Program-made: the position numbers and the translations under genes
Notes under the pieces: model-generated
The model's input: only the letters and a program-made list of their open reading frames with translations
The model's database searches: none
What the model was told of the DNA's origin: nothing
DNA from: Escherichia coli
GTDB taxonomy: Bacteria; Pseudomonadota; Gammaproteobacteria; Enterobacterales; Enterobacteriaceae
Assembly (NCBI RefSeq): GCF_036507355.1
Contig: NZ_AP027879.1
Length of the DNA stretch: 47,389 bases
Strand: one strand, 5' to 3'
In this document: piece by piece, positions 22,059 through 42,860 of the stretch
How positions within the stretch are numbered: the first letter of the stretch is position 1
Layout: each line of letters opens with the position of its first letter

Positions 22059-22364
22059 ATGCGGCGCACTAACCATCGAAACCTCGTGAATGTCGGTATC
22101 CTGTCTGGCAGGATACCGCTCATTTCCCTTGTTCAGTTCATCGCCGTCGCCGAGCATCTGAATTTTCGGCATGCGGCCAAGGCACTTGGTATCAGCCAGT
22201 CGAGCGTCAGCGCGCGTGTGAAAGCGCTGGAGGATAACCTTGGTGTCCTGCTATTTGAGCGCCATGCGCGGGGCGTTCGGCTAACAGACGCAGGCAGGCA
22301 CTTCATGGAGCGTGTCACGGCGGGTGTCGATCAACTCGATCACGCAGTGAAGACCGCGGAGTGA
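22059..22364 (+). pseudogene. lysR: LysR-family regulator, N-terminal HTH fragment
   Basis: 101 aa with HTH region only; effector domain missing. Confidence 0.6.
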
Positions 22365-22369
22365 CGGGC

Positions 22370-24193
22370 ACTGGCTGGCAATGTCTAGCAACGGCAGGCA
22401 TTTCGGCTGAGGGTAAAAGAACTTTCCGCTAAGCGATAGACTGTATGTAAACACAGTATTGCAAGGACGCGGAACATGCCTCATGTGGCGGCCAGGACGG
22501 CCAGCCGGGATCGGGATACTGGTCGTTACCAGAGCCACCGACCCGAGCAAACCCTTCTCTATCAGATCGTTGACGAGTATTACCCGGCATTCGCTGCGCT
22601 TATGGCAGAGCAGGGAAAGGAATTGCCGGGCTATGTGCAACGGGAATTTGAAGAATTTCTCCAATGCGGGCGGCTGGAGCATGGCTTTCTACGGGTTCGC
22701 TGCGAGTCTTGCCACGCCGAGCACCTGGTCGCTTTCAGCTGTAAGCGTCGCGGTTTCTGCCCGAGCTGTGGGGCGCGGCGGATGGCCGAAAGTGCCGCCT
22801 TGCTGGTTGATGAAGTACTGCCTGAACAACCCATGCGTCAGTGGGTGTTGAGCTTCCCGTTTCAGCTGCGTTTCCTGTTTGCCAGCCGGCCCGAGATCAT
22901 GGGGTGGGTGCTGGGCATCGTTTACCGCGTCATTGCCACGCACCTGGTCAAGAAAGCGGGCCATACCCACCAAGTGGCCAAGACGGGCGCGGTCACCCTG
23001 ATCCAGCGTTTTGGATCGGCGCTCAATCTGAATGTTCACTTCCACATGCTGTTTCTCGACGGTGTGTATGTCGAGCAATCCCACGGCTCAGCGCGTTTCC
23101 GCTGGGTCAAGGCGCCGACCAGCCCAGAGCTCACCCAGCTGACGCACACCATCGCCCACCGGGTGGGTCGCTATCTGGAACGGCAAGGCCTGCTGGAACG
23201 GGATGTCGAAAACAGCTATCTGGCCTCGGATGCGGTGGATGACGACCCGATGACACCCCTGCTGGGGCACTCGATCACTTACCGTATCGCTGTCGGTTCA
23301 CAGGCGGGGCGAAAGGTGTTCACTTTGCAAACTCTGCCGACCAGTGGTGATCCGTTCGGTGACGGGATTGGCAAGGTAGCCGGGTCCAGCCTGCACGCCG
23401 GCGTGGCGGCCAGGGCCGATGAACGCAAGAAGCTCGAACGGCTGTGCCGGTACATCAGCCGCCCGGCGGTATCCGAGAAGCGGCTGTCGTTAACACGAGG
23501 CGGCAACGTGCGCTACCAGCTCAAGACGCCGTACCGGGACGGCACCACGCACGTCATTTTCGAACCATTGGATTTCATTGCAAGGCTGGCCGCCCTGGTA
23601 CCGAAGCCCAGAGTCAACCTAACCCGCTTCCACGGGGTGTTCGCACCCAACAGTCGGCACCGGGCGTTGGTCACGCCGGCAAAACGGGGCAGGGGCAACA
23701 AGGTCAGGGTGGCTGATGAACCGGCAACACCAGCACAACGGCGAGCGTCGATGACATGGGCGCAACGGCTCAAGCGTGTTTTCAATATCGACATCGAGAC
23801 CTGCAGCGGCTGCGGCGGCGCCATGAAAGTCATCGCCTGCATTGAAGACCCTATAGTGATCAAGCAGATCCTTGATCACCTGAAGCACAAAGCCGAAACC
23901 AGCGGGACCAGGGCGTTACCCGAAAGCCGGGCGCCACCGGCTGAGCTGCTCCTGGGTCTGTTTGACTGACGAGCCTGAAGGCCAACGATACCAATCAAAA
24001 TGCTGCGTTCACAGCGCCGCGGCAGGGATCCGCCGTGCTGGTTGTCGGAAAAGGAGCCGCTAGTGGGAAAGAGGAGGGTAAATTTTCAGCGTTGCTGGCT
24101 CCCCGTCAGCCGGATTGGGTTGCATCGCAGGGGTGTCGAAAGAGTCAACTGCGGTCCAAAGCTGTTGGACTTGGGTGAAAAGGGCGTTTATTC
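22370..24193 (+). mobile_element. ISCR2 (IS91-like rolling-circle element); boundaries approximate
   Basis: Contains the ISCR2 transposase; right side ends at an IS26 fragment. Confidence 0.5.
22476..23969 (+). CDS. ISCR2 rolling-circle transposase
   Basis: 497 aa with HUH/zinc-binding motifs (CESCHAEHLVAFSCKRRGFCPSCGARRM). Confidence 0.9.
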   Translation: MPHVAARTASRDRDTGRYQSHRPEQTLLYQIVDEYYPAFAALMAEQGKELPGYVQREFEEFLQCGRLEHGFLRVRCESCHAEHLVAFSCKRRGFCPSCGARRMAESAALLVDEVLPEQPMRQWVLSFPFQLRFLFASRPEIMGWVLGIVYRVIATHLVKKAGHTHQVAKTGAVTLIQRFGSALNLNVHFHMLFLDGVYVEQSHGSARFRWVKAPTSPELTQLTHTIAHRVGRYLERQGLLERDVENSYLASDAVDDDPMTPLLGHSITYRIAVGSQAGRKVFTLQTLPTSGDPFGDGIGKVAGSSLHAGVAARADERKKLERLCRYISRPAVSEKRLSLTRGGNVRYQLKTPYRDGTTHVIFEPLDFIARLAALVPKPRVNLTRFHGVFAPNSRHRALVTPAKRGRGNKVRVADEPATPAQRRASMTWAQRLKRVFNIDIETCSGCGGAMKVIACIEDPIVIKQILDHLKHKAETSGTRALPESRAPPAELLLGLFD

Positions 24194-24447
24194 GGCACTG
24201 TTGCAAATAGTCGGTGGTGATAAACTTATCATCCCCTTTTGCTGATGGAGCTGCACATGAACCCATTCAAAGGCCGGCATTTTCAGCGTGACATCATTCT
24301 GTGGGCCGTACGCTGGTACTGCAAATACGGCATCAGTTACCGTGAGCTGCAGGAGATGCTGGCTGAACGCGGAGTGAATGTCGATCACTCCACGATTTAC
24401 CGCTGGGTTCAGCGTTATGCGCCTGAAATGGAAAAACGGCTGCGCTG
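24194..24447 (+). mobile_element. IS26 fragment (first about 254 bp including IRL and tnp 5' end)
   Basis: Identical to the IS26 left end; interrupted by inverted complete IS26 copy c. Confidence 0.8.
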
Positions 24448-24448: not shown

Positions 24449-25268
24449 GGCACTGTTGCAAAGTTAGCGATGAGGCAGCCTTTTGTCTTATTCAAAGGCC
24501 TTACATTTCAAAAACTCTGCTTACCAGGCGCATTTCGCCCAGGGGATCACCATAATAAAATGCTGAGGCCTGGCCTTTGCGTAGTGCACGCATCACCTCA
24601 ATACCTTTGATGGTGGCGTAAGCCGTCTTCATGGATTTAAATCCCAGCGTGGCGTTGATTATCCGTTTCAGTTTGCCATGATCGCATTCAATCACGTTGT
24701 TCCGGTACTTAATCTGTCGGTGTTCAACGTCAGACGGGCACCGGCCTTCGCGTTTGAGCAGAGCAAGCGCGCGACCATAGGCGGGCGCTTTATCCGTGTT
24801 GATGAATCGTGGGATCTGCCACTTCTTCACGTTGTTGAGGATTTTACCCAGAAACCGGTATGCAGCTTTGCTGTTACGACGGGAGGAGAGATAAAAATCG
24901 ACAGTGCGGCCCCGGCTGTCGACGGCCCGGTACAGATACGCCCAGCGGCCATTGACCTTCACGTAGGTTTCATCCATGTGCCACGGGCAAAGATCGGAAG
25001 GGTTACGCCAGTACCAGCGCAGCCGTTTTTCCATTTCAGGCGCATAACGCTGAACCCAGCGGTAAATCGTGGAGTGATCGACATTCACTCCGCGTTCAGC
25101 CAGCATCTCCTGCAGCTCACGGTAACTGATGCCGTATTTGCAGTACCAGCGTACGGCCCACAGAATGATGTCACGCTGAAAATGCCGGCCTTTGAATGGG
25201 TTCATGTGCAGCTCCATCAGCAAAAGGGGATGATAAGTTTATCACCACCGACTATTTGCAACAGTGCC
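24449..25268 (-). mobile_element. IS26, complete (copy c)
   Basis: 14-bp IRs, 820 bp. Confidence 0.95.
24501..25205 (-). CDS. tnp26: IS26 transposase Tnp26, N at position 184
   Basis: Same protein as copies a and b. Confidence 0.95.
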
Positions 25269-25600
25269 CCGGTAACTATCAACTTGAGTCCAACCCGGAA
25301 AGACACGACAAAACGCCACTGGCAGCAGCCATTAGTAACAGGAGTGCACGAGAAGATAGATTAAGAGGTCTTGAAGTAGAGGCCTGACTGCGGCTACACT
25401 GAAAGAACAGTTTTGGTAATGGCGGTCTCGTGAACCCTGTTACCGGGTTAAGCAGTTCCCCAACTGACTTAACCTTCGAACAAACCGCCTCCCCAGGCGG
25501 TTTTTTCGTTTACAGAGCAAGAGATTACGATTCATTGAAAAGGATCTCAAGAAGATCCTTTGTAGATTACTATCAATTAATCTTCCGAACATGACACCAG
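25269..25600 (+). other. ColE1-type replicon remnant (RNAI/RNAII control region); origin proper deleted by IS26
   Basis: Colinear with the pBR322-type ori region from CGGTAACTATC..TTGAGTCCAACCCGG through AAAGGATCTCAAGAAGATCCTTTG. Confidence 0.5.
25407..25506 (+). ncRNA. RNAI-like antisense RNA of the ColE1-type remnant
   Basis: Position matches RNAI in ColE1-type origins; ends in hairpin plus T-run CCGCCTCCCCAGGCGGTTTTTT. Confidence 0.4.
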
Positions 25601-25846
25601 TCACTGTTGATTACGGTTAAACCGCTCCGTAACAGGTTTCCCTCGTATTGGTGACTTGCAGCACCAAAGAAGCAAAAAAGATAAATATATCTACTTATTG
25701 AGAGATGATATATTTATTTCCAAAATGCTACAGATACATCATCATGAAACGGATCACCGCAAACAGGTTACTCGCCTGGGGATTCCCTTTCGACCCGAGC
25801 ATCCGTATGATACTCATGCTCGATTATTATTATTATAGAAGCCCCC

Positions 25847-26662
25847 ATGAATAAATCGCTCATCATTTTCGGCATCGTCAACATAACCTCGGACAGTTTC
25901 TCCGATGGAGGCCGGTATCTGGCGCCAGACGCAGCCATTGCGCAGGCGCGTAAGCTGATGGCCGAGGGGGCAGATGTGATCGACCTCGGTCCGGCATCCA
26001 GCAATCCCGACGCCGCGCCTGTTTCGTCCGACACAGAAATCGCGCGTATCGCGCCGGTGCTGGACGCGCTCAAGGCAGATGGCATTCCCGTCTCGCTCGA
26101 CAGTTATCAACCCGCGACGCAAGCCTATGCCTTGTCGCGTGGTGTGGCCTATCTCAATGATATTCGCGGTTTTCCAGACGCTGCGTTCTATCCGCAATTG
26201 GCGAAATCATCTGCCAAACTCGTCGTTATGCATTCGGTGCAAGACGGGCAGGCAGATCGGCGCGAGGCACCCGCTGGCGACATCATGGATCACATTGCGG
26301 CGTTCTTTGACGCGCGCATCGCGGCGCTGACGGGTGCCGGTATCAAACGCAACCGCCTTGTCCTTGATCCCGGCATGGGGTTTTTTCTGGGGGCTGCTCC
26401 CGAAACCTCGCTCTCGGTGCTGGCGCGGTTCGATGAATTGCGGCTGCGCTTCGATTTGCCGGTGCTTCTGTCTGTTTCGCGCAAATCCTTTCTGCGCGCG
26501 CTCACAGGCCGTGGTCCGGGGGATGTCGGGGCCGCGACACTCGCTGCAGAGCTTGCCGCCGCCGCAGGTGGAGCTGACTTCATCCGCACACACGAGCCGC
26601 GCCCCTTGCGCGACGGGCTGGCGGTATTGGCGGCGCTGAAAGAAACCGCAAGAATTCGTTAA
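25847..26662 (+). CDS. sul2: Sulfonamide-resistant dihydropteroate synthase Sul2
   Basis: 271 aa starting MNKSLIIFGIVNITSDSFSDGG. Confidence 0.95.
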   Translation: MNKSLIIFGIVNITSDSFSDGGRYLAPDAAIAQARKLMAEGADVIDLGPASSNPDAAPVSSDTEIARIAPVLDALKADGIPVSLDSYQPATQAYALSRGVAYLNDIRGFPDAAFYPQLAKSSAKLVVMHSVQDGQADRREAPAGDIMDHIAAFFDARIAALTGAGIKRNRLVLDPGMGFFLGAAPETSLSVLARFDELRLRFDLPVLLSVSRKSFLRALTGRGPGDVGAATLAAELAAAAGGADFIRTHEPRPLRDGLAVLAALKETARIR

Positions 26663-26722
26663 CTGCACATTCGGGATATTTCTCTATATTCGCGCTTCAT
26701 CAGAAAACTGAAGGAACCTCCA

Positions 26723-27526
26723 TTGAATCGAACTAATATTTTTTTTGGTAAATCGCATTCTGACTGGTTGCCTGTCAGAGGCGGAGAATCTGGTGATTTT
26801 GTTTTTCGACGTGGTGACGGGCATGCCTTCGCGAAAATCGCACCTGCTTCCCGCCGCGGTGAGCTCGCTGGAGAGCGTGACCGCCTCATTTGGCTCAAAG
26901 GTCGAGGTGTGGCTTGCCCCGAGGTCATCAACTGGCAGGAGGAACAGGAGGGTGCATGCTTGGTGATAACGGCAATTCCGGGAGTACCGGCGGCTGATCT
27001 GTCTGGAGCGGATTTGCTCAAAGCGTGGCCGTCAATGGGGCAGCAACTTGGCGCTGTTCACAGCCTATCGGTTGATCAATGTCCGTTTGAGCGCAGGCTG
27101 TCGCGAATGTTCGGACGCGCCGTTGATGTGGTGTCCCGCAATGCCGTCAATCCCGACTTCTTACCGGACGAGGACAAGAGTACGCCGCAGCTCGATCTTT
27201 TGGCTCGTGTCGAACGAGAGCTACCGGTGCGGCTCGACCAAGAGCGCACCGATATGGTTGTTTGCCATGGTGATCCCTGCATGCCGAACTTCATGGTGGA
27301 CCCTAAAACTCTTCAATGCACGGGTCTGATCGACCTTGGGCGGCTCGGAACAGCAGATCGCTATGCCGATTTGGCACTCATGATTGCTAACGCCGAAGAG
27401 AACTGGGCAGCGCCAGATGAAGCAGAGCGCGCCTTCGCTGTCCTATTCAATGTATTGGGGATCGAAGCCCCCGACCGCGAACGCCTTGCCTTCTATCTGC
27501 GATTGGACCCTCTGACTTGGGGTTGA
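26723..27526 (+). CDS. strA: Aminoglycoside 3''-phosphotransferase APH(3'')-Ib
   Basis: 267 aa; classic sul2-strA-strB order. Confidence 0.95.
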   Translation: MNRTNIFFGKSHSDWLPVRGGESGDFVFRRGDGHAFAKIAPASRRGELAGERDRLIWLKGRGVACPEVINWQEEQEGACLVITAIPGVPAADLSGADLLKAWPSMGQQLGAVHSLSVDQCPFERRLSRMFGRAVDVVSRNAVNPDFLPDEDKSTPQLDLLARVERELPVRLDQERTDMVVCHGDPCMPNFMVDPKTLQCTGLIDLGRLGTADRYADLALMIANAEENWAAPDEAERAFAVLFNVLGIEAPDRERLAFYLRLDPLTWG

Positions 27527-28362
27527 TGTTCATGCCGCCTGTTTTTCCTGCTCATTGGCACGTTTCGCAACCTGTTCTCATTGCGGACACCTTTTCCAGC
27601 CTCGTTTGGAAAGTTTCATTGCCAGACGGGACTCCTGCAATCGTCAAGGGATTGAAACCTATAAAAGACATTGCTGATGAACTGCGCGGGGCCGACTATC
27701 TGGTATGGCGCAATGGGAGGGGAGCAGTCCGGTTGCTCGGTCGTGAGAACAATCTGATGTTGCTCGAATATGCCGGGGAGCGAATGCTCTCTCACATCGT
27801 TGCCGAGCACGGCGACTACCAGGCGACCGAAATTGCAGCGGAACTAATGGCGAAGCTGTATGCCGCATCTGAGGAACCCCTGCCTTCTGCCCTTCTCCCG
27901 ATCCGGGATCGCTTTGCAGCTTTGTTTCAGCGGGCGCGCGATGATCAAAACGCAGGTTGTCAAACTGACTACGTCCACGCGGCGATTATAGCCGATCAAA
28001 TGATGAGCAATGCCTCGGAACTGCGTGGGCTACATGGCGATCTGCATCATGAAAACATCATGTTCTCCAGTCGCGGCTGGCTGGTGATAGATCCCGTCGG
28101 TCTGGTCGGTGAAGTGGGCTTTGGCGCCGCCAATATGTTCTACGATCCGGCTGACAGAGACGACCTTTGTCTCGATCCTAGACGCATTGCACAGATGGCG
28201 GACGCATTCTCTCGTGCGCTGGACGTCGATCCGCGTCGCCTGCTCGACCAGGCGTACGCTTATGGGTGCCTTTCCGCAGCTTGGAACGCGGATGGAGAAG
28301 AGGAGCAACGCGATCTAGCTATCGCGGCCGCGATCAAGCAGGTGCGACAGACGTCATACTAG
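27526..28362 (+). CDS. strB: Aminoglycoside 6-phosphotransferase APH(6)-Id
   Basis: 278 aa from MFMPPVFPAHW; 1-bp overlap with the strA stop. Confidence 0.95.
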   Translation: MFMPPVFPAHWHVSQPVLIADTFSSLVWKVSLPDGTPAIVKGLKPIKDIADELRGADYLVWRNGRGAVRLLGRENNLMLLEYAGERMLSHIVAEHGDYQATEIAAELMAKLYAASEEPLPSALLPIRDRFAALFQRARDDQNAGCQTDYVHAAIIADQMMSNASELRGLHGDLHHENIMFSSRGWLVIDPVGLVGEVGFGAANMFYDPADRDDLCLDPRRIAQMADAFSRALDVDPRRLLDQAYAYGCLSAAWNADGEEEQRDLAIAAAIKQVRQTSY

Positions 28363-28387
28363 ATATCAAGCGACTTCTCCTATCCCC

Positions 28388-28468
28388 TGGGAACACATCA
28401 ATCTCACCGGAGAATATCGCTGGCCAAAGCCTTAGCGTAGGATTCCGCCCCTTCCCGCAAACGACCCC
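28388..28468. repeat. Tn5393-type 81-bp terminal inverted repeat downstream of strB
   Basis: Reverse complement begins GGGGTCGTTTGCGGGAAGGGG. Confidence 0.5.
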
Positions 28469-28717
28469 TTTCTGGCGCGTTTGCAGGGCCATAGACGGCC
28501 GCCAGCCCAGCGGCGAGGGCAACCAGCCCGGTGAGCGTCGGAAAGGCGCTGGAAGCCCCGTAGCGACGCGGAGAGGGGCGAGACAAGCCAAGGGCGCAGG
28601 CTCGATGCGCAGCACGACATAGCCGGTTCTCGCAAGGACGAGAATTTCCCTGCGGTGCCCCTCAAGTGTCAATGAAAGTTTCCAACGCGAGCCATTCGCG
28701 AGAGCCTTGAGTCCACG
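28469..28717. other. Short non-coding segment joining the strB/IR end to the tet module; origin uncertain (contains GCCCCTCAAGTGTCA)
   Basis: No ORF; ends exactly where tetR-upstream sequence begins without a Tn1721 IR. Confidence 0.3.
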
Positions 28718-29032
28718 CTAGATCTATCTCATCTGCGCAAGGCAGAACGTGAAGACGGCCGCCCTGGACCTCGCCCGCGAGCGCCAGGCGCACGAGGCCG
28801 GCGCGCGGACCCGCGCCACGGCCCACGAGCGGACGCCGCAGCAGGAGCGCCAGAAGGCCGCCAGAGAGGCCGAGCGCGGCCGTGAGGCTTGGACGCTAGG
28901 GCAGGGCATGAAAAAGCCCGTAGCGGGCTGCTACGGGCGTCTGACGCGGTGGAAAGGGGGAGGGGATGTTGTCTACATGGCTCTGCTGTAGTGAGTGGGT
29001 TGCGCTCCGGCAGCGGTCCTGAGCGGTCCTGA

Positions 29033-29683
29033 TCAATCGTCACCCTTTCTCGGTCCTTCAACGTTCCTGACAACGAGCCTCCTTTTCGCCAATCCATCGA
29101 CAATCACCGCGAGTCCCTGCTCGAACGCTGCGTCCGGACGGGCTTCGTCGAAGGCGTCTATCGCGGCCCGCAACAGCGGCGAGAGCGGAGCCTGTTCAAC
29201 GGTGCCGCCGCGCTCGCCGGCATCGCTGTCGCCGGCCTGCTCCTCAAGCACGGCCCCAACAGTGAAGTAGCTGATTGTCATCAGCGCATTGACGGCGTCC
29301 CCGGCCGAAAAACCCGCCTCGCAGAGGAAGCGAAGCTGCGCGTCGGCCGTTTCCATCTGCGGTGCGCCCGGTCGCGTGCCGGAATGGATGCGCGCGCCAT
29401 CGCGGTAGGCGAGCAGCGCCTGCCTGAAGCTGCGGGCATTCCCGATCAGAAATGAGCGCCAGTCGTCGTCGGCTCTCGGCACCGAATGCGTATGATTCTC
29501 CGCCAGCATGGCTTCGGCCAGTGCGTCGAGCAGCGCCCGCTTGTTCCTGAAGTGCCAGTAAAGCGCCGGCTGCTGAACCCCCAACCGTTCCGCCAGTTTG
29601 CGTGTCGTCAGACCGTCTACGCCGACCTCGTTCAACAGGTCCAGGGCGGCACGGATCACTGTATTCGGCTGCAACTTTGTCAT
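29033..29683 (-). CDS. tetR: Tetracycline repressor TetR, class A (variant copy)
   Basis: 216 aa from MTKLQPNTVIRAALDLL; differs from the second copy at two residues. Confidence 0.95.
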   Translation of the reverse strand: MTKLQPNTVIRAALDLLNEVGVDGLTTRKLAERLGVQQPALYWHFRNKRALLDALAEAMLAENHTHSVPRADDDWRSFLIGNARSFRQALLAYRDGARIHSGTRPGAPQMETADAQLRFLCEAGFSAGDAVNALMTISYFTVGAVLEEQAGDSDAGERGGTVEQAPLSPLLRAAIDAFDEARPDAAFEQGLAVIVDGLAKRRLVVRNVEGPRKGDD

Positions 29684-29692
29684 GCTTGACAC

Positions 29693-29788
29693 TTTATCAC
29701 TGATAAATATAATATGTCCACCAACTTATCAGTGATAAAGAATCCGCGCGTTCAATCGGACCAGCGGAGGCTGGTCCGGAGGCCAGAC
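29693..29788. promoter_or_regulatory. tetR/tetA divergent promoter region with tet operator palindromes
   Basis: ACTTTATCACTGATAAA and CTTATCAGTGATAAAG between the divergent genes. Confidence 0.7.
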
Positions 29789-30988
29789 GTGAAACCCAAC
29801 AGACCCCTGATCGTAATTCTGAGCACTGTCGCGCTCGACGCTGTCGGCATCGGCCTGATTATGCCGGTGCTGCCGGGCCTCCTGCGCGATCTGGTTCACT
29901 CGAACGACGTCGCCGCCCACTATGGCATTCTGCTGGCGCTGTATGCGTTGATGCAATTTGCCTGCGCACCTGTGCTGGGTGCGCTGTCGGATCGTTTCGG
30001 GCGGCGGCCGGTCTTGCTCGTCTCGCTGGCCGGCGCTGCTGTCGACTACGCCATCATGGCGACGGCGCCTTTCCTTTGGGTTCTCTATATCGGGCGGATC
30101 GTGGCCGGCATCACCGGGGCGACTGGGGCGGTAGCCGGCGCTTATATTGCCGATATCACTGATGGCGATGAGCGCGCGCGGCACTTCGGCTTCATGAGCG
30201 CCTGTTTCGGGTTCGGGATGGTCGCGGGACCTGTGCTCGGTGGGCTGATGGGCGGTTTCTCCCCCCACGCTCCGTTCTTCGCCGCGGCAGCCTTGAACGG
30301 CCTCAATTTCCTGACGGGCTGTTTCCTTTTGCCGGAGTCGCACAAAGGCGAACGCCGGCCGTTACGCCGGGAGGCTCTCAACCCGCTCGCTTCGTTCCGG
30401 TGGGCCCGGGGCATGACCGTCGTCGCCGCCCTGATGGCGGTCTTCTTCATCATGCAACTTGTCGGACAGGTGCCGGCCGCGCTTTGGGTCATTTTCGGCG
30501 AGGATCGCTTTCACTGGGACGCGACCACGATCGGCATTTCGCTTGCCGCATTTGGCATTCTGCATTCACTCGCCCAGGCAATGATCACCGGCCCTGTAGC
30601 CGCCCGGCTCGGCGAAAGGCGGGCACTCATGCTCGGAATGATTGCCGACGGCACAGGCTACATCCTGCTTGCCTTCGCGACACGGGGATGGATGGCGTTC
30701 CCGATCATGGTCCTGCTTGCTTCGGGTGGCATCGGAATGCCGGCGCTGCAAGCAATGTTGTCCAGGCAGGTGGATGAGGAACGTCAGGGGCAGCTGCAAG
30801 GCTCACTGGCGGCGCTCACCAGCCTGACCTCGATCGTCGGACCCCTCCTCTTCACGGCGATCTATGCGGCTTCTATAACAACGTGGAACGGGTGGGCATG
30901 GATTGCAGGCGCTGCCCTCTACTTGCTCTGCCTGCCGGCGCTGCGTCGCGGGCTTTGGAGCGGCGCAGGGCAACGAGCCGATCGCTGA
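29789..30988 (+). CDS. tetA: Tetracycline efflux MFS pump TetA, class A (variant copy)
   Basis: 399 aa from GTG at VKPNRPLIVILSTVALDAVGIG; three aa differences from the second copy. Confidence 0.95.
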   Translation: MKPNRPLIVILSTVALDAVGIGLIMPVLPGLLRDLVHSNDVAAHYGILLALYALMQFACAPVLGALSDRFGRRPVLLVSLAGAAVDYAIMATAPFLWVLYIGRIVAGITGATGAVAGAYIADITDGDERARHFGFMSACFGFGMVAGPVLGGLMGGFSPHAPFFAAAALNGLNFLTGCFLLPESHKGERRPLRREALNPLASFRWARGMTVVAALMAVFFIMQLVGQVPAALWVIFGEDRFHWDATTIGISLAAFGILHSLAQAMITGPVAARLGERRALMLGMIADGTGYILLAFATRGWMAFPIMVLLASGGIGMPALQAMLSRQVDEERQGQLQGSLAALTSLTSIVGPLLFTAIYAASITTWNGWAWIAGAALYLLCLPALRRGLWSGAGQRADR

Positions 30989-31359
30989 TAGAGGTTTATA
31001 GCGGCTTCGTTCCCTTCCGCAACCGTCAGCATGATCTGCTCCACATGCTCGCGGCCATAGTCTATCACCGCCCGCAGCAGCATACCGGCGACCCCTCGGC
31101 CTCGCTGTTCGGGCTCCACGAAAACGCCGGACAGATGCGCCTTGTGAGCGTCCTTGGGGCCGTCCTCCTGTTTGAAGACCGACAGCCCAATGATCTCGCC
31201 GTCGATGTAGGCGCCGAATGCCACGGCATCTCGCAACCGTTCAGCGAACGCCTCCATGGGCTTTTTCTCCTCGTGCTCGTAAACGGACCCGAACATCTCT
31301 GGAGCTTTCTTCAGGGCCGACAATCGGATCTCGCCGAAATGCCTGCCGTTGCTAGACAT
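30989..31359 (-). pseudogene. GNAT-family N-acetyltransferase, 3'-truncated at the tetA boundary
   Basis: First about 123 codons GNAT-like (QRGRGVAGMLLRAVIDYGRE); frame continues into antisense tetA. Confidence 0.5.
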
Positions 31360-31364
31360 TGCCA

Positions 31365-31847
31365 GCCAGTGCCCGTCACTCCCGTACTAACTGTCACGAA
31401 CCCCTGCAATAACTGTCACGCCCCCCTGCAATAACTGTCACGAACCCCTGCAATAACTGTCACGCCCCCAAACCTGCAAACCCAGCAGGGGCGGGGGCTG
31501 GCGGGGTGTTGGAAAAATCCATCCATGATTATCTAAGAATAATCCACTAGGCGCGGTTATCAGCGCCCTTGTGGGGCGCTGCTGCCCTTGCCCAATATGC
31601 CCGGCCAGAGGCCGGATAGCTGGTCTATTCGCTGCGCTAGGCTACACACCGCCCCACCGCTGCGCGGCAGGGGGAAAGGCGGGCAAAGCCCGCTAAACCC
31701 CACACCAAACCCCGCAGAAATACGCTGGAGCGCTTTTAGCCGCTTTAGCGGCCTTTCCCCCTACCCGAAGGGTGGGGGCGCGTGTGCAGCCCCGCAGGGC
31801 CTGTCTCGGTCGATCATTCAGCCCGGCTCATCCTTCTGGCGTGGCGG
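31365..31847. other. IncQ1 (RSF1010-type) oriV fragment with direct iterons, GC-rich and AT-rich segments
   Basis: Iterons CTGTCACGAACCCCTGCAATAA at about 31386-31470, then GC-rich block and AT-rich CCATCCATGATTATCTAAGAATAATCC; identification from recalled RSF1010 sequence. Confidence 0.55.
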
Positions 31848-32770
31848 ATGATAACGGCCAGCATGGCGTCCAGAACGTCCAATGCATCATCCAGCGCCAG
31901 CGTTTCCCATGCAAGGACAAAGGCAACCAGAACCGCCATCCTTTTCTGCGGTGACATCCTGGCAATATTGAACACCGAAGTCATACCAGCATAACGTGCG
32001 AGATTTTTCAGGCGCACAGCCGGGAGTGTACTCAGGTTTTCAGCATGCAGGCCAAAATCGTTCAGAGTTTTCCAGCGTTCAATTGCTTCATTAAACGCCG
32101 GACCACTGATGGTCACAGGGCCCTTTTTCAGTGATTCCAGTAAAGACAGGCGGCTGCAATCAGTTGGCCCCAGCAGCATCTCCAGCTGTGAACGCTGTTC
32201 GGCTGACGGTATCAGTGCCAGTTTGTTCCACAGGCGCAACGTCGCCTTTTCCCTTACCTCTGAAATCAACCGGGTCAGCGTAGTGGCTCCGGGGAGAATA
32301 ATACGATGTTGCATAAGCCACCCTGTCGCCAGATCGAAAAGCAGGCCAGGACGTTCGTTGCTTATCCAGCTCCGGGTATATAAAAGACGGGTAAGGCGAA
32401 ATGTCCAGGGCCAGGCAAATTCACGATACTGATAGTGCTGACGTATCAGCGCTGCATGCTCACGGCGGGTATTTTCCCTCTGACCGTATTCTGCAAGAAC
32501 GGTGATATCACGAATCCCGAGCTGTCTGGCGGTAAAATGCCGGACGCCGGAAGGAATATGATTCATATCGGTGAGGAAGGTGCCCAGAAAACGGACACAT
32601 CCAATTTGCAGGGCAATGCCCAGACGGTTGTGATCACCTCTGCTTTTTCCGATAAATTCCTTGTCTGCTTCATCAAGGTGAAAATATCGTGCCAGCTGAA
32701 GCTCATCCGGTTCACCGGTGAATCTGCCATAGCTTTCAGTCTGCTCAGTGGTCAGAAAGTCAACGGGCAT
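31848..32770 (-). pseudogene. tnpA: Tn2/Tn3 transposase TnpA, N-terminal about 307 codons only (3'-truncated)
   Basis: MPVDFLTTEQTESYGRFTGEPDELQLARYFHL...; frame runs into oriV-fragment sequence. Confidence 0.85.
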
Positions 32771-33491
<721 letters not shown>

Positions 33492-33603
33492 TACGCCTAT
33501 TTTTATAGGTTAATGTCATGATAATAATGGTTTCTTAGACGTCAGGTGGCACTTTTCGGGGAAATGTGCGCGGAACCCCTATTTGTTTATTTTTCTAAAT
33601 ACA

Positions 33604-33632
33604 TTCAAATATGTATCCGCTCATGAGACAAT
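33604..33632 (+). promoter_or_regulatory. blaTEM P3-type promoter (-35 TTCAAA, 17-bp spacer, -10 GACAAT)
   Basis: Hexamers located about 40 bp upstream of the blaTEM start. Confidence 0.5.
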
Positions 33633-33661
33633 AACCCTGGTAAATGCTTCAATAATATTGA

Positions 33662-34534
<873 letters not shown>

Positions 34535-34643
34535 CTGTCAGACCAAGTTTACTCATATATACTTTAGATTGATTTAAAACTTCATTTTTAATTTAAAAGG
34601 ATCTAGGTGAAGATCCTTTTTGATAATCTCATGACCAAAATCC

Positions 34644-34681
34644 CTTAACGTGAGTTTTCGTTCCACTGAGCGTCAGACCCC
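34644..34681. repeat. Tn3/Tn2 right 38-bp inverted repeat
   Basis: CTTAACGTGAGTTTTCGTTCCACTGAGCGTCAGACCCC. Confidence 0.85.
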
Positions 34682-34791
34682 TATGATTACCCTCTTAGTA
34701 ACAGTTCGAAAGATCCAGACCTAAGTCAAGTACGCCAACACAACTTCAGAGCAAGTATAGCATATTCATTTAGAAAGCTAAAAAAATAAAA

Positions 34792-35583
34792 CTAACCTAG
34801 GGCTTTGGATATTTTCAAGGCATCTGATAAAGACTTAACATCATGGGTGCGGAGATAATCTGCACCTTTTTTGTATGCATACATTTCTGCTGCAAGAGTT
34901 GGTGCTAAACGAGATTTCACATCGGTTCCAGTTATTTTACCTAAGAATGATTTCCGTGACACTGCAATCATTACTTGCAAATTAAAAGCTTCTTGAATTT
35001 CAGGGAAACGCTTCAAAACAAGAATAGATGTTTCTGGATTAGAGCCTAAAAAGAAGCCCATACCCGGATCAAGAATAATTCGTTCACGCTTTACACCAGC
35101 CTCAACTAAAGCAGCAATTCTTTCTTTAAAAAATTCCATCATGGAAGTAAAAACCTCTTCCGGATTCGTTTCAACTTTAGTAGCTGCACCAATTCGCTGA
35201 ACGGAGTGCATCAACACAAGTTTGCAATCTGACTTTGCCAAGCCTGAATAAATCTCAGGATAAGGAAAACCTTGAATATCATTAATAAAATCAACCTTTT
35301 GTTCTATGCAAAAACTCTGAACCTCAGGTTTAAATGTATCAACAGAAATAGAAATGCCTTTTTCTTTTAAAGCCTTAATGACAGGTTTGAGTCTTTTGAT
35401 TTCTTCCACAACGCCCACTTCAGTTGTATCAGGATTACTGGAAGCGGCTCCCAAATCAATCACATCTGCTCCATCTTCAACCAAATGCAGAGCATGCTCA
35501 ATTGCCTTATCTGTATCTAAATAAAGTCCTCCATCGGAAAAACTATCGGTGGTTATATTTACGATTCCAAAAATCTTGCTCAT
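34792..35583 (-). CDS. sul3: Sulfonamide-resistant dihydropteroate synthase Sul3
   Basis: 263 aa, AT-rich, MSKIFGIVNITTDSFSDGG; flanked by SDR gene, MFS fragment and IS26. Confidence 0.85.
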   Translation of the reverse strand: MSKIFGIVNITTDSFSDGGLYLDTDKAIEHALHLVEDGADVIDLGAASSNPDTTEVGVVEEIKRLKPVIKALKEKGISISVDTFKPEVQSFCIEQKVDFINDIQGFPYPEIYSGLAKSDCKLVLMHSVQRIGAATKVETNPEEVFTSMMEFFKERIAALVEAGVKRERIILDPGMGFFLGSNPETSILVLKRFPEIQEAFNLQVMIAVSRKSFLGKITGTDVKSRLAPTLAAEMYAYKKGADYLRTHDVKSLSDALKISKALG

Positions 35584-36051
35584 ATCATTTTGCTTTGATT
35601 ACAAAAGTAGCATTTATCTTAATTGACTAATTATCACTTACGCAAATTGACACATTTTCCCTATCTTTGCAGCCTAATTTTTTTGTTTTAATTCATTATG
35701 AAAACTGATAGGAACTGTCATTTCGAGTTTTTCGCGGTTTTGGGTCAAAATTCGGTTTTTTCCCCGAACTACGACTGTTTTCGCACCCCGAACAACTAAT
35801 CCAATCAGAATTTTCCGGCAACGCCGACTCCAAGAAGTGTAATTCCAGTCTATTTCTGCCGTCAACCCCTGATTCGCGTTAATGCGACAAAGCTCAAACA
35901 CATAACTCCCCCACGAAGCCATATAAACTCCGATTTCGAGGTGTTATCCTGTTCCGCATAAACTTCGTTTTTGGGTATTATACCTACACCAAAGCAAGAA
36001 GATTATGGGTCCAAACTTCATTTGTATATTTTGCAAACAAATATCTGCCTG

Positions 36052-36297
36052 TCATATCTGTCGGAGTGTGGTGATACTCCTTTGCATTAAAAATGCGCTG
36101 ATAAAAGGTAGTTCAGCAAAAGGCGAAACGCCAATAAATATATCTATAACCGGTTTCGCCCGTTGATTGGGTATCGCCGTGCTTCCGATATGTTCAATGG
36201 CTACGGCATGAGAACCGAAAAAATGGAGCAATTTTATTTTCTCTTCTTCAAAATTCTTTGTCCAATCCGGGTTATATTCCATAATTTCAATTTTCAT
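36052..36297 (-). pseudogene. GrpB-like (UPF0157) N-terminal fragment
   Basis: 81-aa ORF with GSTAIP motif; much shorter than full-length family members. Confidence 0.3.
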
Positions 36298-36334
36298 GAT
36301 AGTTTCGTCCTTGCCTCAAAAACCATGTTTGGTA

Positions 36335-37198
36335 TTATACTCCATATCTCTCCGGTGCAGGAATAGCCTTTTCTGATGCACGGCTAACAGCTTCCCATTC
36401 TTCCCAGGTAGCCATCCGTGCTTTTAAGGTATCCATCGCCAAATCGTATACCATGCTGCCAAGGATAAGCCTCAAAGGCGGATTATTGCTGGCTACTAAT
36501 TTCATAAGGGCTTCCGCTGCCAAGGAAGGATCACTATCGACCGAATCTTCGGAATACTGTTTCGCCAGCTCATCGCGCAGTGTACCGTATGAATCTAATG
36601 GATTGCTGTAACTCATCGAAGTGTATAAATCTGTCCAATATCCTCCTGGTTCCACCATAGTGAGTTTCACTCCGAAATGTTCCGCTTCTTTTGCTAAGGC
36701 TTCACTCATTCCTTCCAGCGCAAATTTACTTGCACTGTAAATACCAGACATCGGACCCGAGATAATAGCGCCAATGCTTGTAATCTGTATGATATGTCCA
36801 GAACGCTGCGACCTCAAATAGGGCATCACTGCCTGACAAACCCAAAGAGCTCCAAAAAAGTTTGTGTCCATTAGTTTCCGAGCATCGGATTCGTTTAGTT
36901 CTTCAATCATACCCATAGTCATGATACCCGCATTATTAACAACAATATCAAGCCTACCGAAATGTTTAACTGCTGTTTCAACCGTAGAAAAAACAGCCTC
37001 CCTATCTGTAACATCGAGGTTTAATGGCAGTAAGCTCTCTTGATATGTTTCTTCTAGCTTCGCCAAATTATCGATAGTCCTTGCAACTGCAACAACTTTA
37101 TCCCCGGCTTTCAAGGCGGCGCATGTAAAAGCATAGCCAAGCCCCTTGCTTGCTCCGGTAATAAACCATACTCTTTTATTTTCGCTATTAGGTATCAT
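36335..37198 (-). CDS. Short-chain dehydrogenase/reductase (SDR)
   Basis: 287 aa; TGASKGLG Rossmann motif and YSASK catalytic motif. Confidence 0.75.
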   Translation of the reverse strand: MIPNSENKRVWFITGASKGLGYAFTCAALKAGDKVVAVARTIDNLAKLEETYQESLLPLNLDVTDREAVFSTVETAVKHFGRLDIVVNNAGIMTMGMIEELNESDARKLMDTNFFGALWVCQAVMPYLRSQRSGHIIQITSIGAIISGPMSGIYSASKFALEGMSEALAKEAEHFGVKLTMVEPGGYWTDLYTSMSYSNPLDSYGTLRDELAKQYSEDSVDSDPSLAAEALMKLVASNNPPLRLILGSMVYDLAMDTLKARMATWEEWEAVSRASEKAIPAPERYGV

Positions 37199-37326
37199 AG
37201 ATATTCTCCTTTAGGCTATTATAGAAAGATTATTATAAGCGAAATTAATACCGTTAAACGCCATGAGCCCGACAATTTTGAGCACTTTGTTTTGTACTCC
37301 CAGAAGCTCACTACTACAAATTATCA

Positions 37327-37595
37327 TCAACCCGGTCCTTTTTTCAGTCCACTTGCGGTTTTCATTGTTACTTTGTCATAGCGTCGTGTCAGAATGCGGC
37401 AGAGAACAGCGTTTACTATCAACGCAACACCAGACCAGAAAAACCATGTATTAACACCTATAACCTCAACAACCGGACCTGCAACAAGTAAGCCTATCGG
37501 CATAGAAAGAGTCATGGCGGTCATCAAAAGGGAAAACACCTTGCCCATCATTTCAGGGGCAATGCTTTCTTGAACATAAGCCATAACAGGAACAT
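37327..37595 (-). pseudogene. mefB: MFS efflux pump C-terminal fragment (likely mef(B)), 5'-truncated by IS26
   Basis: Hydrophobic TM-like C-terminus; frame opens at the IS26 boundary. Confidence 0.45.
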
Positions 37596-38415
37596 GGCAC
37601 TGTTGCAAAGTTAGCGATGAGGCAGCCTTTTGTCTTATTCAAAGGCCTTACATTTCAAAAACTCTGCTTACCAGGCGCATTTCGCCCAGGGGATCACCAT
37701 AATAAAATGCTGAGGCCTGGCCTTTGCGTAGTGCACGCATCACCTCAATACCTTTGATGGTGGCGTAAGCCGTCTTCATGGATTTAAATCCCAGCGTGGC
37801 GCCGATTATCCGTTTCAGTTTGCCATGATCGCATTCAATCACGTTGTTCCGGTACTTAATCTGTCGGTGTTCAACGTCAGACGGGCACCGGCCTTCGCGT
37901 TTGAGCAGAGCAAGCGCGCGACCATAGGCGGGCGCTTTATCCGTGTTGATGAATCGCGGGATCTGCCACTTCTTCACGTTGTTGAGGATTTTACCCAGAA
38001 ACCGGTATGCAGCTTTGCTGTTACGACGGGAGGAGAGATAAAAATCGACAGTGCGGCCCCGGCTGTCGACGGCCCGGTACAGATACGCCCAGCGGCCATT
38101 GACCTTCACGTAGGTTTCATCCATGTGCCACGGGCAAAGATCGGAAGGGTTACGCCAGTACCAGCGCAGCCGTTTTTCCATTTCAGGCGCATAACGCTGA
38201 ACCCAGCGGTAAATCGTGGAGTGATCGACATTCACTCCGCGTTCAGCCAGCATCTCCTGCAGCTCACGGTAACTGATGCCGTATTTGCAGTACCAGCGTA
38301 CGGCCCACAGAATGATGTCACGCTGAAAATGCCGGCCTTTGAATGGGTTCATGTGCAGCTCCATCAGCAAAAGGGGATGATAAGTTTATCACCACCGACT
38401 ATTTGCAACAGTGCC
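37596..38415 (-). mobile_element. IS26, complete (copy d)
   Basis: 14-bp IRs, 820 bp. Confidence 0.95.
37648..38352 (-). CDS. tnp26: IS26 transposase Tnp26, G at position 184
   Basis: [10 protein letters not shown]. Confidence 0.95.
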   Translation of the reverse strand: MNPFKGRHFQRDIILWAVRWYCKYGISYRELQEMLAERGVNVDHSTIYRWVQRYAPEMEKRLRWYWRNPSDLCPWHMDETYVKVNGRWAYLYRAVDSRGRTVDFYLSSRRNSKAAYRFLGKILNNVKKWQIPRFINTDKAPAYGRALALLKREGRCPSDVEHRQIKYRNNVIECDHGKLKRIIGATLGFKSMKTAYATIKGIEVMRALRKGQASAFYYGDPLGEMRLVSRVFEM

Positions 38416-38598: not shown

Positions 38599-39081
38599 TT
38601 AACCCTTTTTCCAAATTTGATAGCAATAGTTAATGTTTGAAGTAAAGTGTTGCTCAAAAACAACTTCGAAGGTATTTGGAATACTCGGGAAGAAAACATC
38701 CCCCTCTGGCTCGATGTCGATCGTCGATAAGTGGAGCGTAGAGGCCATGGGTAATGTTTCTCGGTAAATTTCTCCGCCACCAGACACTATAACGTGACCG
38801 GTGAATTCAGCTAGCCTGTCCATGGCCTCTTCGATTGACTGAAATACAACTACATTGTCATCATTTGATGTCCAACCTGAGCGGGTAACGACCGCGTATT
38901 TCCTATTGGGGAGTGCGCCCATAGATTCAAACGTCTTGCGACCCACCAGAAGCCACTGATTGTAGGTCAATGCTTTAAAAAGTAGCTGCTCCCCTTTCGC
39001 GGACCAGGGTATGTCTGGACCGCAACCAATCACGCCGTTTTTCGCTTTCGCAGCCATCAATGATACTTTCAAGGTTCTCAT
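38599..39081 (-). CDS. dfrA14: Trimethoprim-resistant dihydrofolate reductase DfrA (dfrA14/dfrA5 group)
   Basis: 160-aa ORF; type B DHFR; allele assignment from recalled sequence is tentative. Confidence 0.8.
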
Positions 39082-39227
39082 CCTGGGTTAACTTTGTTTT
39101 AGGGCGACTGCCCTGCTGCGTAACATCGTTGCTGCTCCATAACATCAAACATCGACCCACGGCGTAACGCGCTTGCTGCTTGGATGCCCGAGGCATAGAC
39201 TGTACAAAAAAACAGTCATAACAAGCC
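39082..39227. promoter_or_regulatory. attI1 recombination site region of a class 1 integron
   Basis: GCCCTAAAACAAAGTTAACC between intI1 start and the first cassette. Confidence 0.6.
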
Positions 39228-40233
39228 ATGAAAACCGCCACTGCGCCGTTACCACCGCTGCGTTCGGTCAAGGTTCTGGACCAGTTGCGTGAGCGCATAC
39301 GCTACTTGCATTACAGTTTACGAACCGAACAGGCTTATGTCCACTGGGTTCGTGCCTTCATCCGTTTCCACGGTGTGCGTCACCCGGCAACCTTGGGCAG
39401 CAGCGAAGTCGAGGCATTTCTGTCCTGGCTGGCGAACGAGCGCAAGGTTTCGGTCTCCACGCATCGTCAGGCATTGGCGGCCTTGCTGTTCTTCTACGGC
39501 AAGGTGCTGTGCACGGATCTGCCCTGGCTTCAGGAGATCGGAAGACCTCGGCCGTCGCGGCGCTTGCCGGTGGTGCTGACCCCGGATGAAGTGGTTCGCA
39601 TCCTCGGTTTTCTGGAAGGCGAGCATCGTTTGTTCGCCCAGCTTCTGTATGGAACGGGCATGCGGATCAGTGAGGGTTTGCAACTGCGGGTCAAGGATCT
39701 GGATTTCGATCACGGCACGATCATCGTGCGGGAGGGCAAGGGCTCCAAGGATCGGGCCTTGATGTTACCCGAGAGCTTGGCACCCAGCCTGCGCGAGCAG
39801 CTGTCGCGTGCACGGGCATGGTGGCTGAAGGACCAGGCCGAGGGCCGCAGCGGCGTTGCGCTTCCCGACGCCCTTGAGCGGAAGTATCCGCGCGCCGGGC
39901 ATTCCTGGCCGTGGTTCTGGGTTTTTGCGCAGCACACGCATTCGACCGATCCACGGAGCGGTGTCGTGCGTCGCCATCACATGTATGACCAGACCTTTCA
40001 GCGCGCCTTCAAACGTGCCGTAGAACAAGCAGGCATCACGAAGCCCGCCACACCGCACACCCTCCGCCACTCGTTCGCGACGGCCTTGCTCCGCAGCGGT
40101 TACGACATTCGAACCGTGCAGGATCTGCTCGGCCATTCCGACGTCTCTACGACGATGATTTACACGCATGTGCTGAAAGTTGGCGGTGCCGGAGTGCGCT
40201 CACCGCTTGATGCGCTGCCGCCCCTCACTAGTG
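39228..40233 (+). CDS. intI1: Class 1 integron integrase IntI1, last two codons and stop replaced by IS26
   Basis: [27 protein letters not shown]...; native frame ends at LDALPPLTS where IS26 begins. Confidence 0.9.
39315..39343 (-). promoter_or_regulatory. Integron cassette promoter Pc, PcH1-type (-35 TGGACA, -10 TAAACT)
   Basis: Hexamers on the cassette strand inside the intI1 5' coding region, 17-bp spacing. Confidence 0.6.
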
Positions 40234-41053
40234 GGCACTGTTGCAAAGTTAGCGATGAGGCAGCCTTTTGTCTTATTCAAAGGCCTTACATTTCAAAAAC
40301 TCTGCTTACCAGGCGCATTTCGCCCAGGGGATCACCATAATAAAATGCTGAGGCCTGGCCTTTGCGTAGTGCACGCATCACCTCAATACCTTTGATGGTG
40401 GCGTAAGCCGTCTTCATGGATTTAAATCCCAGCGTGGCGCCGATTATCCGTTTCAGTTTGCCATGATCGCATTCAATCACGTTGTTCCGGTACTTAATCT
40501 GTCGGTGTTCAACGTCAGACGGGCACCGGCCTTCGCGTTTGAGCAGAGCAAGCGCGCGACCATAGGCGGGCGCTTTATCCGTGTTGATGAATCGCGGGAT
40601 CTGCCACTTCTTCACGTTGTTGAGGATTTTACCCAGAAACCGGTATGCAGCTTTGCTGTTACGACGGGAGGAGAGATAAAAATCGACAGTGCGGCCCCGG
40701 CTGTCGACGGCCCGGTACAGATACGCCCAGCGGCCATTGACCTTCACGTAGGTTTCATCCATGTGCCACGGGCAAAGATCGGAAGGGTTACGCCAGTACC
40801 AGCGCAGCCGTTTTTCCATTTCAGGCGCATAACGCTGAACCCAGCGGTAAATCGTGGAGTGATCGACATTCACTCCGCGTTCAGCCAGCATCTCCTGCAG
40901 CTCACGGTAACTGATGCCGTATTTGCAGTACCAGCGTACGGCCCACAGAATGATGTCACGCTGAAAATGCCGGCCTTTGAATGGGTTCATGTGCAGCTCC
41001 ATCAGCAAAAGGGGATGATAAGTTTATCACCACCGACTATTTGCAACAGTGCC
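40234..41053 (-). mobile_element. IS26, complete (copy e)
   Basis: 14-bp IRs, 820 bp. Confidence 0.95.
40286..40990 (-). CDS. tnp26: IS26 transposase Tnp26, G at position 184
   Basis: Same protein as copy d. Confidence 0.95.
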
Positions 41054-41869: not shown

Positions 41870-41902
41870 CGTACGATTTTTTCCGAATTCTGCGGGCTCC
41901 CC
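41865..41902. repeat. Tn1721 38-bp inverted repeat (internal IR preceding the tet module)
   Basis: Reverse complement GGGGAGCCCGCAGAATTCGGAAAAAATCGTACGCTAAG. Confidence 0.8.
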
Positions 41903-42200
41903 TATCTCATCTGCGCAAGGCAGAACGTGAAGACGGCCGCCCTGGACCTCGCCCGCGAGCGCCAGGCGCACGAGGCCGGCGCGCGGACCCGCGCCACGGC
42001 CCACGAGCGGACGCCGCAGCAGGAGCGCCAGAAGGCCGCCAGAGAGGCCGAGCGCGGCCGTGAGGCTTGGACGCTAGGGCAGGGCATGAAAAAGCCCGTA
42101 GCGGGCTGCTACGGGCGTCTGACGCGGTGGAAAGGGGGAGGGGATGTTGTCTACATGGCTCTGCTGTAGTGAGTGGGTTGCGCTCCGGCAGCGGTCCTGA

Positions 42201-42851
42201 TCAATCGTCACCCTTTCTCGGTCCTTCAACGTTCCTGACAACGAGCCTCCTTTTCGCCAATCCATCGACAATCACCGCGAGTCCCTGCTCGAACGCTGCG
42301 TCCGGATCGGCTTCGTCGAAGGCGTCTATCGCGGCCCGCAACAGCGGCGAGAGCGGAGCCTGTTCAACGGTGCCGCCGCGCTCGCCGGCATCGCTGTCGC
42401 CGGCCTGCTCCTCAAGCACGGCCCCAACAGTGAAGTAGCTGATTGTCATCAGCGCATTGACGGCGTCCCCGGCCGAAAAACCCGCCTCGCAGAGGAAGCG
42501 AAGCTGCGCGTCGGCCGTTTCCATCTGCGGTGCGCCCGGTCGCGTGCCGGCATGGATGCGCGCGCCATCGCGGTAGGCGAGCAGCGCCTGCCTGAAGCTG
42601 CGGGCATTCCCGATCAGAAATGAGCGCCAGTCGTCGTCGGCTCTCGGCACCGAATGCGTATGATTCTCCGCCAGCATGGCTTCGGCCAGTGCGTCGAGCA
42701 GCGCCCGCTTGTTCCTGAAGTGCCAGTAAAGCGCCGGCTGCTGAACCCCCAACCGTTCCGCCAGTTTGCGTGTCGTCAGACCGTCTACGCCGACCTCGTT
42801 CAACAGGTCCAGGGCGGCACGGATCACTGTATTCGGCTGCAACTTTGTCAT
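42201..42851 (-). CDS. tetR: Tetracycline repressor TetR, class A (Tn1721-type copy)
   Basis: 216 aa from MTKLQ. Confidence 0.95.
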   Translation of the reverse strand: MTKLQPNTVIRAALDLLNEVGVDGLTTRKLAERLGVQQPALYWHFRNKRALLDALAEAMLAENHTHSVPRADDDWRSFLIGNARSFRQALLAYRDGARIHAGTRPGAPQMETADAQLRFLCEAGFSAGDAVNALMTISYFTVGAVLEEQAGDSDAGERGGTVEQAPLSPLLRAAIDAFDEADPDAAFEQGLAVIVDGLAKRRLVVRNVEGPRKGDD

Positions 42852-42860
42852 GCTTGACAC

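Follow-up and report, generated by a model that had tools for sequence, protein, structure and literature searches.

The segment at positions 30989-31847 of the window (the whole 47,389-nt stretch of Escherichia coli DNA analysed here) very probably carries an intact, stranded IncQ1 oriV, which forms the right end of a 6.1-kb pNUC-type fragment; this fragment lies on an IncX1 plasmid, in a multiresistance unit between two IS26 copies. The segment was bounded by the stop codon of tetA(A) on the left and by a truncated Tn2/Tn3-family tnpA on the right. The first-pass annotation had described an orphan IncQ-type origin beside a truncated GNAT acetyltransferase gene. Our analysis supports this reading with refinements: the fragment to which the origin belongs is larger, and the GNAT gene was cut at both ends and arrived together with tetA.

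Identity to IncQ1 plasmids

The IncQ1 reference was pSS2017-3, an RSF1010-like plasmid of 8,688 bp that stands in for RSF1010 (NC_001740). It is typed as IncQ1 and has repA, repB, repC, mobABC, sul2 and strAB. In a three-way alignment, the region 31333-31847 was identical at 515 of 515 positions to both pSS2017-3 and pNUC; pSS2017-3 matched the window at 31330-31847 only. The complete segment 30989-31847 (859 bp) showed 100% identity to eleven plasmids of ~11 kb, ten of them from Salmonella. Among these eleven, pNUC (the one examined) is typed as IncQ1, and eight others carried mobC under the match. The same 859 bp were also 100% identical to large plasmids of E. coli, Klebsiella, Shigella and Edwardsiella. 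The iterons with the adjacent GC- and AT-rich blocks had earlier been assigned to the RSF1010 oriV, and the 515-bp perfect identity to an RSF1010-like IncQ1 plasmid bears this out. The alignment against an IncQ oriV that had been proposed as a check, in which a lack of significant identity was to speak against the assignment, returned 100% identity.

Organization of the origin

Five elements were located on the iteron side of the mobC remnant and up to it:

31391-31466, plus strand: IncQ1 iterons, three 20-bp repeats (31391, 31413 and 31435) at 22-bp spacing, followed by a half repeat at 31457-31466
31485-31512, plus strand: G+C-rich oriV block, 28 bp, 82% G+C, 3' of the iterons
31513-31543, plus strand: A+T-rich oriV block, 31 bp, directly 3' of the G+C-rich block
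31640-31679, minus strand: ssiB, 40-nt RepB' primase initiation site of the bottom strand
31752-31791, plus strand: ssiA, 40-nt RepB' primase initiation site of the top strand

In IncQ1 plasmids, the iterons are the binding sites of RepC. The iteron quoted in the first-pass annotation, CTGTCACGAACCCCTGCAATAA, corresponds to 31391-31412. TRF reported a 22-bp unit in 3.5 copies at 31388-31464 (score 140). A degenerate iteron pattern matched the window three times, always within this array, with 0.01 matches expected by chance. The sizes of the two blocks are those expected in the RSF1010 oriV, namely 28 bp for the G+C-rich and 31 bp for the A+T-rich block, the latter being the presumed opening site and the point of entry of the RepA helicase.

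The ssiA site had a six-nt leader, a hairpin formed by nt 7-27, C28, C30 and the G31-T32-G33 triplet, in agreement with the published description. The ssiB site, inverted relative to ssiA, had a CCTTTC leader, a predicted hairpin and GTG at nt 31-33. These features of the RepB' priming sites, including the G31-T32-G33 start triplet, were reported in PMC8567376. The stability of the ssiA and ssiB hairpins showed no significant excess over that of shuffled sequence (z about -1), and the hairpins are used here solely to show agreement with the description in the literature, not as independent evidence. Moreover, the primers published for oriV qPCR of the synthetic IncQ plasmid pQGS (PMC6925257) found exact matches at 31614-31634 and 31712-31729. 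Judged from sequence, all cis elements of an IncQ1 oriV are present and unmutated, and the origin is complete.

The pNUC-type fragment and the missing replication genes

The origin belongs to a longer region that is collinear with pNUC and ends within a transposase gene:

25748-31847, plus strand: pNUC-collinear fragment, 6.1 kb, equal to pNUC 7902-11069 plus 1-2922 (blastn)
31821-31847, minus strand: mobC remnant, the last 9 codons (tblastn, MobC residues 86-94, 100% identity)
31848-32929, minus strand: 5' part of a Tn2/Tn3-family tnpA, followed by tnpR and blaTEM-1 (ORFs)

The gene order of the fragment was sul2-strA-strB-tetR(A)-tetA(A)-GNAT fragment-CR2 remnant-oriV-mobC 3' end, with 30 bp of mobC included. 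It aligned with pNUC in two contiguous blocks at 99.5-99.9% identity (blastn), with the differences confined to 29012-29980 and none in the GNAT-oriV part. The strB-tetR, tetA-GNAT and GNAT-CR2 junctions were identical to those of pNUC; pSS2017-3 has neither the tet module nor the GNAT fragment. On grounds of parsimony, we take a pNUC-type plasmid to be the source of the window fragment and do not invoke a common ancestor of the two. The pNUC homology on the left starts only 99 bp 5' of sul2, so the sul2-strAB part could come from another sul2 context. We also observed a 10-bp insertion (AGCGGTCCTG) relative to pNUC at 29012-29021, 12 bp 3' of the tetR stop codon, and five point differences, all of which fell in tetR-tetA (29140-29980).

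The remaining part of pNUC (2923-7901), with most of mobC, oriT, mobA/repB, mobB, E, F, repA and repC, had no counterpart in the window by blastn. Likewise, tblastn searches of the window with RepA, RepC, MobA/RepB, MobB, E and F gave a best E value of 0.23. Both searches are in line with the earlier statement that repA, repB and repC are missing from the window. The IncQ1-derived DNA ends at the mobC remnant, and oriT, mobA/repB, repA and repC are all deleted. Because the window holds no cognate repA, repB or repC, the segment is, as read from its sequence, an origin and not an autonomous IncQ1 replicon.

The mobC/tnpA junction was mapped by a three-way alignment of the window, an intact Tn3-family tnpA and the RSF1010-like plasmid. 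The end of mobC (ATCCTTCTGGCGTGGCGG) and the interior of tnpA (ATCTTTCTGGCGTCACGG) met at the microhomology ATCYTTCTGGCGTSRCGG, in which 15 of 18 bases are shared, and the crossover lay in the final CGG (31845-31847). We found no insertion sequence at the mobC/tnpA junction, which points to an illegitimate, microhomology-mediated deletion or fusion. Deletions of repBAC with short homologies at their flanks have been reported for RSF1010 copies integrated in bee-gut bacteria (PMC9063374).

The GNAT reading frame and the CR2 remnant

Between tetA(A) and the iterons, the segment is a composite of short remnants:

29714-30988, plus strand: tetA(A) (ORF list; annotation of pNUC and p13C1065T-3), with the TGA stop at 30986-30988
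30919-31359, minus strand: chimeric ORF, 146 aa, WP_025732385, named "GNAT family N-acetyltransferase" in RefSeq
30990-31332, minus strand: internal GNAT fragment, without ~19 N-terminal and ~30 C-terminal codons relative to 165-aa homologues
31333-31382, minus strand: remnant of an ISCR2 (CR2) end, 50 bp from the transposase-upstream end, supplying the ATG of the chimeric ORF

The chimeric ORF consists of 9 CR2-derived codons (including the ATG), 114 GNAT codons and a 23-codon tail that is antisense to tetA. The Pfam Acetyltransf_1 profile matched residues 25-126 of the 146-aa product (E = 5e-19). In the alignment, true homology to the 165-aa GNATs began at residue 10 (EIRLSALKK) and ended at about residue 125. 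The nearest full-length homologue is a 165-aa protein, 90% identical and labelled Sinorhizobium meliloti. Both termini are replaced by unrelated sequence, and the product does not amount to a complete ~165-aa GNAT fold.

The identity to the second tetA copy in the window ended at 30989, one base past the TGA, which places the tetA/GNAT junction within 30988-30990. In this respect, the first-pass annotation was correct that the GNAT gene loses its 3' end exactly at the tetA stop codon; it missed that the 5' end is lost too. The second tetR-tetA(A) copy (41902-44157) shared 99.9% identity with the first. Its tetA is followed, in the manner of Tn1721, by a pecM-type EamA transporter gene (44188-45072) and further on, at 45537-47357, by a fragment of a Tn3-family tnpA. 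The two tetR-tetA copies form 2.2-kb direct repeats 13 kb apart, through which the intervening DNA could be deleted or amplified.

A search for the GNAT gene in IncQ-like plasmids, also suggested earlier, found it in pNUC and not in the RSF1010-like pSS2017-3. The fragment is thus not part of the IncQ backbone. On the metagenomic contig L004, tetA and GNAT are joined in the same way and the GNAT 5' end is intact; a tetR fragment and a trfA fragment lie in front of it. The same arrangement was found in trfA-annotated plasmids and in IncP-1alpha plasmids (60,095-bp RP4-sized records and pBS228). The IncP-1alpha order, tetA(A)-GNAT remnant-tetR remnant-trfA, shares the tetA stop/GNAT junction with the window, and its GNAT is 99% identical; however, it keeps its own 5' end, which the GNAT gene in the window lost when it recombined with the CR2 remnant. 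The shared junction suggests that the GNAT remnant travelled with the tetA(A) module. PMC8953408 attributes the tet genes of the pNUC group to Tn1721. The tet(A) module of the pNUC lineage differs from a plain Tn1721 end: downstream of tetA, the former has the IncP-1alpha-type tetA/GNAT junction, the latter a pecM-type EamA transporter gene.

The 50 bp at 31333-31382 were identical to 22358-22407, a stretch 69 bp upstream of the gene for the ISCR2 transposase. We take this transposase-upstream end to be the terIS side in the usual ISCR nomenclature. In pSS2017-3, the same CR2 remnant also abuts the iterons and is much longer. About 2,900 PLSDB records matched the CR2 remnant piece only, because the RSF1010-type plasmid carries the longer remnant. 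The GNAT/CR2 junction fell within a GC(C/G)GAAAT microhomology. The window also contains a complete ISCR2 (tnp at 22476-23969) next to floR (20817-22031). The two 50-bp CR2 copies (22358-22407 and 31333-31382) are inverted and represent a possible substrate for inversion by homologous recombination, though a very short one.

The IS26 unit and the IncX1 carrier

The carrier is recognizable by its backbone genes, and the resistance unit by two copies of IS26:

67-705: IncX1 backbone, resolvase-like gene
1086-1748: IncX1 backbone, ParA-like gene
4105-4941: IncX1 backbone, RepB-family initiator gene
24449-25268, minus strand: left boundary IS26, with terminal inverted repeats and the tnp ORF at the same offset as in the right copy
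37596-38415, minus strand: right boundary IS26, with terminal inverted repeats, in the same orientation as the left copy

The two directly oriented IS26 copies flank a segment of 12.3 kb (25269-37595), as in a pseudo-compound transposon or translocatable unit. Besides the pNUC-type fragment, this unit includes sul3, a ColE1-type origin fragment and a truncated Tn2 that carries blaTEM-1. Positions 1-6500 of the window were 100% identical to several small IncX1 plasmids, e.g. pO189_X1, which shares the sul3-blaTEM-1-IS26 region and is without the IncQ fragment.

The ColE1-type origin fragment (25269-25747), between IS26 and sul2, is a second stranded replication relic in the unit. It contains a full RNAI gene (Rfam RF00106, 25408-25509, 73.9 bits) and might still express the incompatibility RNA. 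Judged by eye against the pUC/pBR322 origin, IS26 presumably cuts this fragment at ~+300 of RNAII, so that the origin proper would be missing. Elsewhere in the window, an inverted 818-bp strB fragment (11871-12688) abuts an IS26 (12689-13508), and qnrS1 (15670-16326) adjoins an ISKra4-family transposase gene at 13436-14890 (ISKpn19 in matching records). Lone IS26 ends were seen at 15409-15422 and 24194-24207. The region 38599-40340 carries intI1 and a dfrA cassette for trimethoprim resistance that is DfrA1-like and goes by the name dfrA14 in the corresponding region of pO189_X1. Both are enclosed by the IS26 copies at 37596-38415 and 40234-41053, and the intI1 frame runs into the second of these.

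Distribution of the junction

The same oriV/tnpA junction was present in 19 PLSDB plasmid records. Among 5,426 complete E. coli genomes, 20 had it, one of these on the chromosome, and it was found in several species. The hosts, where recorded, were mostly poultry, frogs, other animals and humans. In p13C1065T-3, the same gene order extended from IS26 through blaTEM-1. None of the 20 junction genomes was also listed with IncQ1 repB-repA among the matches listed, with only ~0.2 overlaps expected by chance.

The record NZ_AP027868.1 (12,365 bp, deposited as circular) corresponds to positions 25829-37595 of the window (99.84%) plus an ISAba1 fragment. It has no typed replicon and no IS26, and the same strain has the module on a 111-kb plasmid. 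This circle may be an assembly artefact of the IS26-flanked repeat, an excised circle or an IncQ/ColE1 satellite. The configuration as such has already been sequenced many times and is a known, widespread relic in a common IS26 resistance mosaic; our literature search found no paper that discusses this particular orphan origin.

Proposed history and function of the orphan origin

The junctions suggest that the arrangement arose in the following way. In the ancestral RSF1010, the CR2 remnant would have been next to the iterons. A tetR-tetA(A) module, in which a GNAT gene without its 3' end was already joined to the stop codon of tetA as in IncP-1alpha plasmids, would then have recombined into the IncQ1 plasmid at the GC(C/G)GAAAT microhomology. 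This event would have left 50 bp of CR2 and removed the GNAT 5' end, giving rise to the pNUC lineage. A second microhomology event would have joined the mobC 3' end to the interior of the Tn2 tnpA, with the loss of oriT, mobA/repB, repA and repC.

IncQ initiation begins when RepC, bound to the iterons, opens the AT-rich DNA next to them; the RepA helicase then exposes ssiA and ssiB. From the ssi sites, RepB' primes leading-strand synthesis in both directions (PMC8567376). IncQ plasmids without repA or repC do not establish alone; they need a full-length helper and depress its copy number (PMC6925257). The iterons are the main incompatibility determinants of IncQ plasmids (PMC4948828). The carrier would replicate from its IncX1 replicon, with the IncQ origin as a silent passenger. 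If an IncQ1 plasmid entered the cell, the orphan iterons should bind RepC and the origin could fire. It should also compete with the incoming plasmid, seen as incompatibility or copy-number depression. Since the trans factors are absent, and in view of the published IncQ biology, the origin most likely stays silent in its carrier, and only the presence of an IncQ1 plasmid could allow it to fire or to titrate RepC.

A more active role would be that the orphan oriV is kept for use, either in helper-driven over-replication of the carrier or of an excised IS26-unit circle as a satellite, or in exclusion of, or incompatibility with, IncQ1 plasmids. We consider this improbable. All cis elements are intact and unmutated, rep-less IncQ derivatives that bear oriV do replicate when a helper is present and reduce the copy number of that helper (PMC6925257), and the junction recurs across several species and hosts. 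However, the neighbouring resistance DNA is equally near 100% identity, which argues that the conservation reflects recent spread, not selection. For the same reason, with the flanking resistance genes conserved as well, we rejected the 100% conservation as a sign of selection. The replicon-less circular record of 12,365 bp, equivalent to 25829-37595 of the window, would fit such a role, but it may be an assembly artefact, given that the strain has the module on the 111-kb plasmid. Moreover, strand-displacement initiation in a large theta-replicating plasmid could well be harmful. In its strongest form, the orphan oriV would be a working cis element, and alongside an IncQ1 plasmid the 12.3-kb IS26 unit, or circles such as NZ_AP027868, would behave as an IncQ satellite that depresses or excludes its helper. 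This also seems to us unlikely; if true, it would parallel in nature the IncQ satellite plasmids that evolved in the laboratory.

It is more doubtful still that the segment persists for the sake of the GNAT frame as a working acetyltransferase (e.g. a resistance enzyme), with the origin being incidental. The RefSeq annotation, the retained acetyl-CoA motif region and the Acetyltransf_1 match (E = 5e-19) are compatible with such an enzyme. Nevertheless, the ~19 N-terminal and ~30 C-terminal residues are lost and replaced by residues read from CR2 and from the tetA antisense strand. The ORF owes its start codon solely to the junction and overlaps tetA on the opposite strand.

Finally, it is extremely unlikely that the likeness to IncQ is accidental or that the repeats belong to another iteron replicon, e.g. 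that of the carrier, which has its own RepB-family initiator, as the perfect identity over 515 bp to IncQ1 includes ssiA and ssiB, no other part of the window contains the iteron pattern and the IncX1 initiator gene (4105-4941) is 26 kb away; chance resemblance was ruled out by the 515/515 alignment to IncQ1 plasmids.

Comparison with known systems

The stranded IncQ1 origin is organized as in RSF1010/R1162/R300B (IncQ1), with 3.5 iterons, the 28-bp GC and 31-bp AT blocks, ssiB, ssiA and a CR2 remnant abutting the iterons. In contrast to the RSF1010 oriV, it has no linked repA, repB or repC, the oriT and mob genes are gone and CR2 is cut to 50 bp. It also sits on an IncX1 plasmid, whereas RSF1010 is an IncQ plasmid of 8.7 kb. 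The plasmids pNUC and pSTU288-2 represent a group of ~11-kb IncQ1 plasmids according to Oliva et al. 2017, as cited in PMC8953408. Unlike in pNUC, the fragment in the window is joined on the left to the ColE1-type fragment and IS26, and on the right to the truncated Tn2.

An analogous situation was reported for the E. coli resistance loci of pO26-CRL125 and pO111-CRL115, where an orphan IncP-1alpha oriV lies next to tetA(A) without trfA and was judged non-functional by the authors (PMC3817090). As in the window, a complete broad-host-range origin is located by tetA(A) without its initiator gene. However, that origin is of the IncP type and depends on TrfA and DnaA, whereas ours is of the IncQ type, with RepA/B/C and strand displacement, and the junctions are different. 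The IncQ satellites (PMC6925257) and the RSF1010 remnants of bee-gut bacteria (PMC9063374) similarly keep oriV with the rep genes deleted. The satellites, in contrast, are free circles sustained by a helper, whereas the remnant described here is embedded in another replicon.

Implications

The practical value of these observations lies in annotation and replicon typing. The RefSeq label "GNAT family N-acetyltransferase" is, at this locus, a junction artefact. Typing or PCR schemes aimed at the IncQ oriV will call this IncX1 plasmid IncQ-positive, despite there being no IncQ replicon. We must also note, more speculatively, that if the orphan origin responds to IncQ Rep proteins, the establishment of IncQ1 plasmids would be affected in strains that carry the module.
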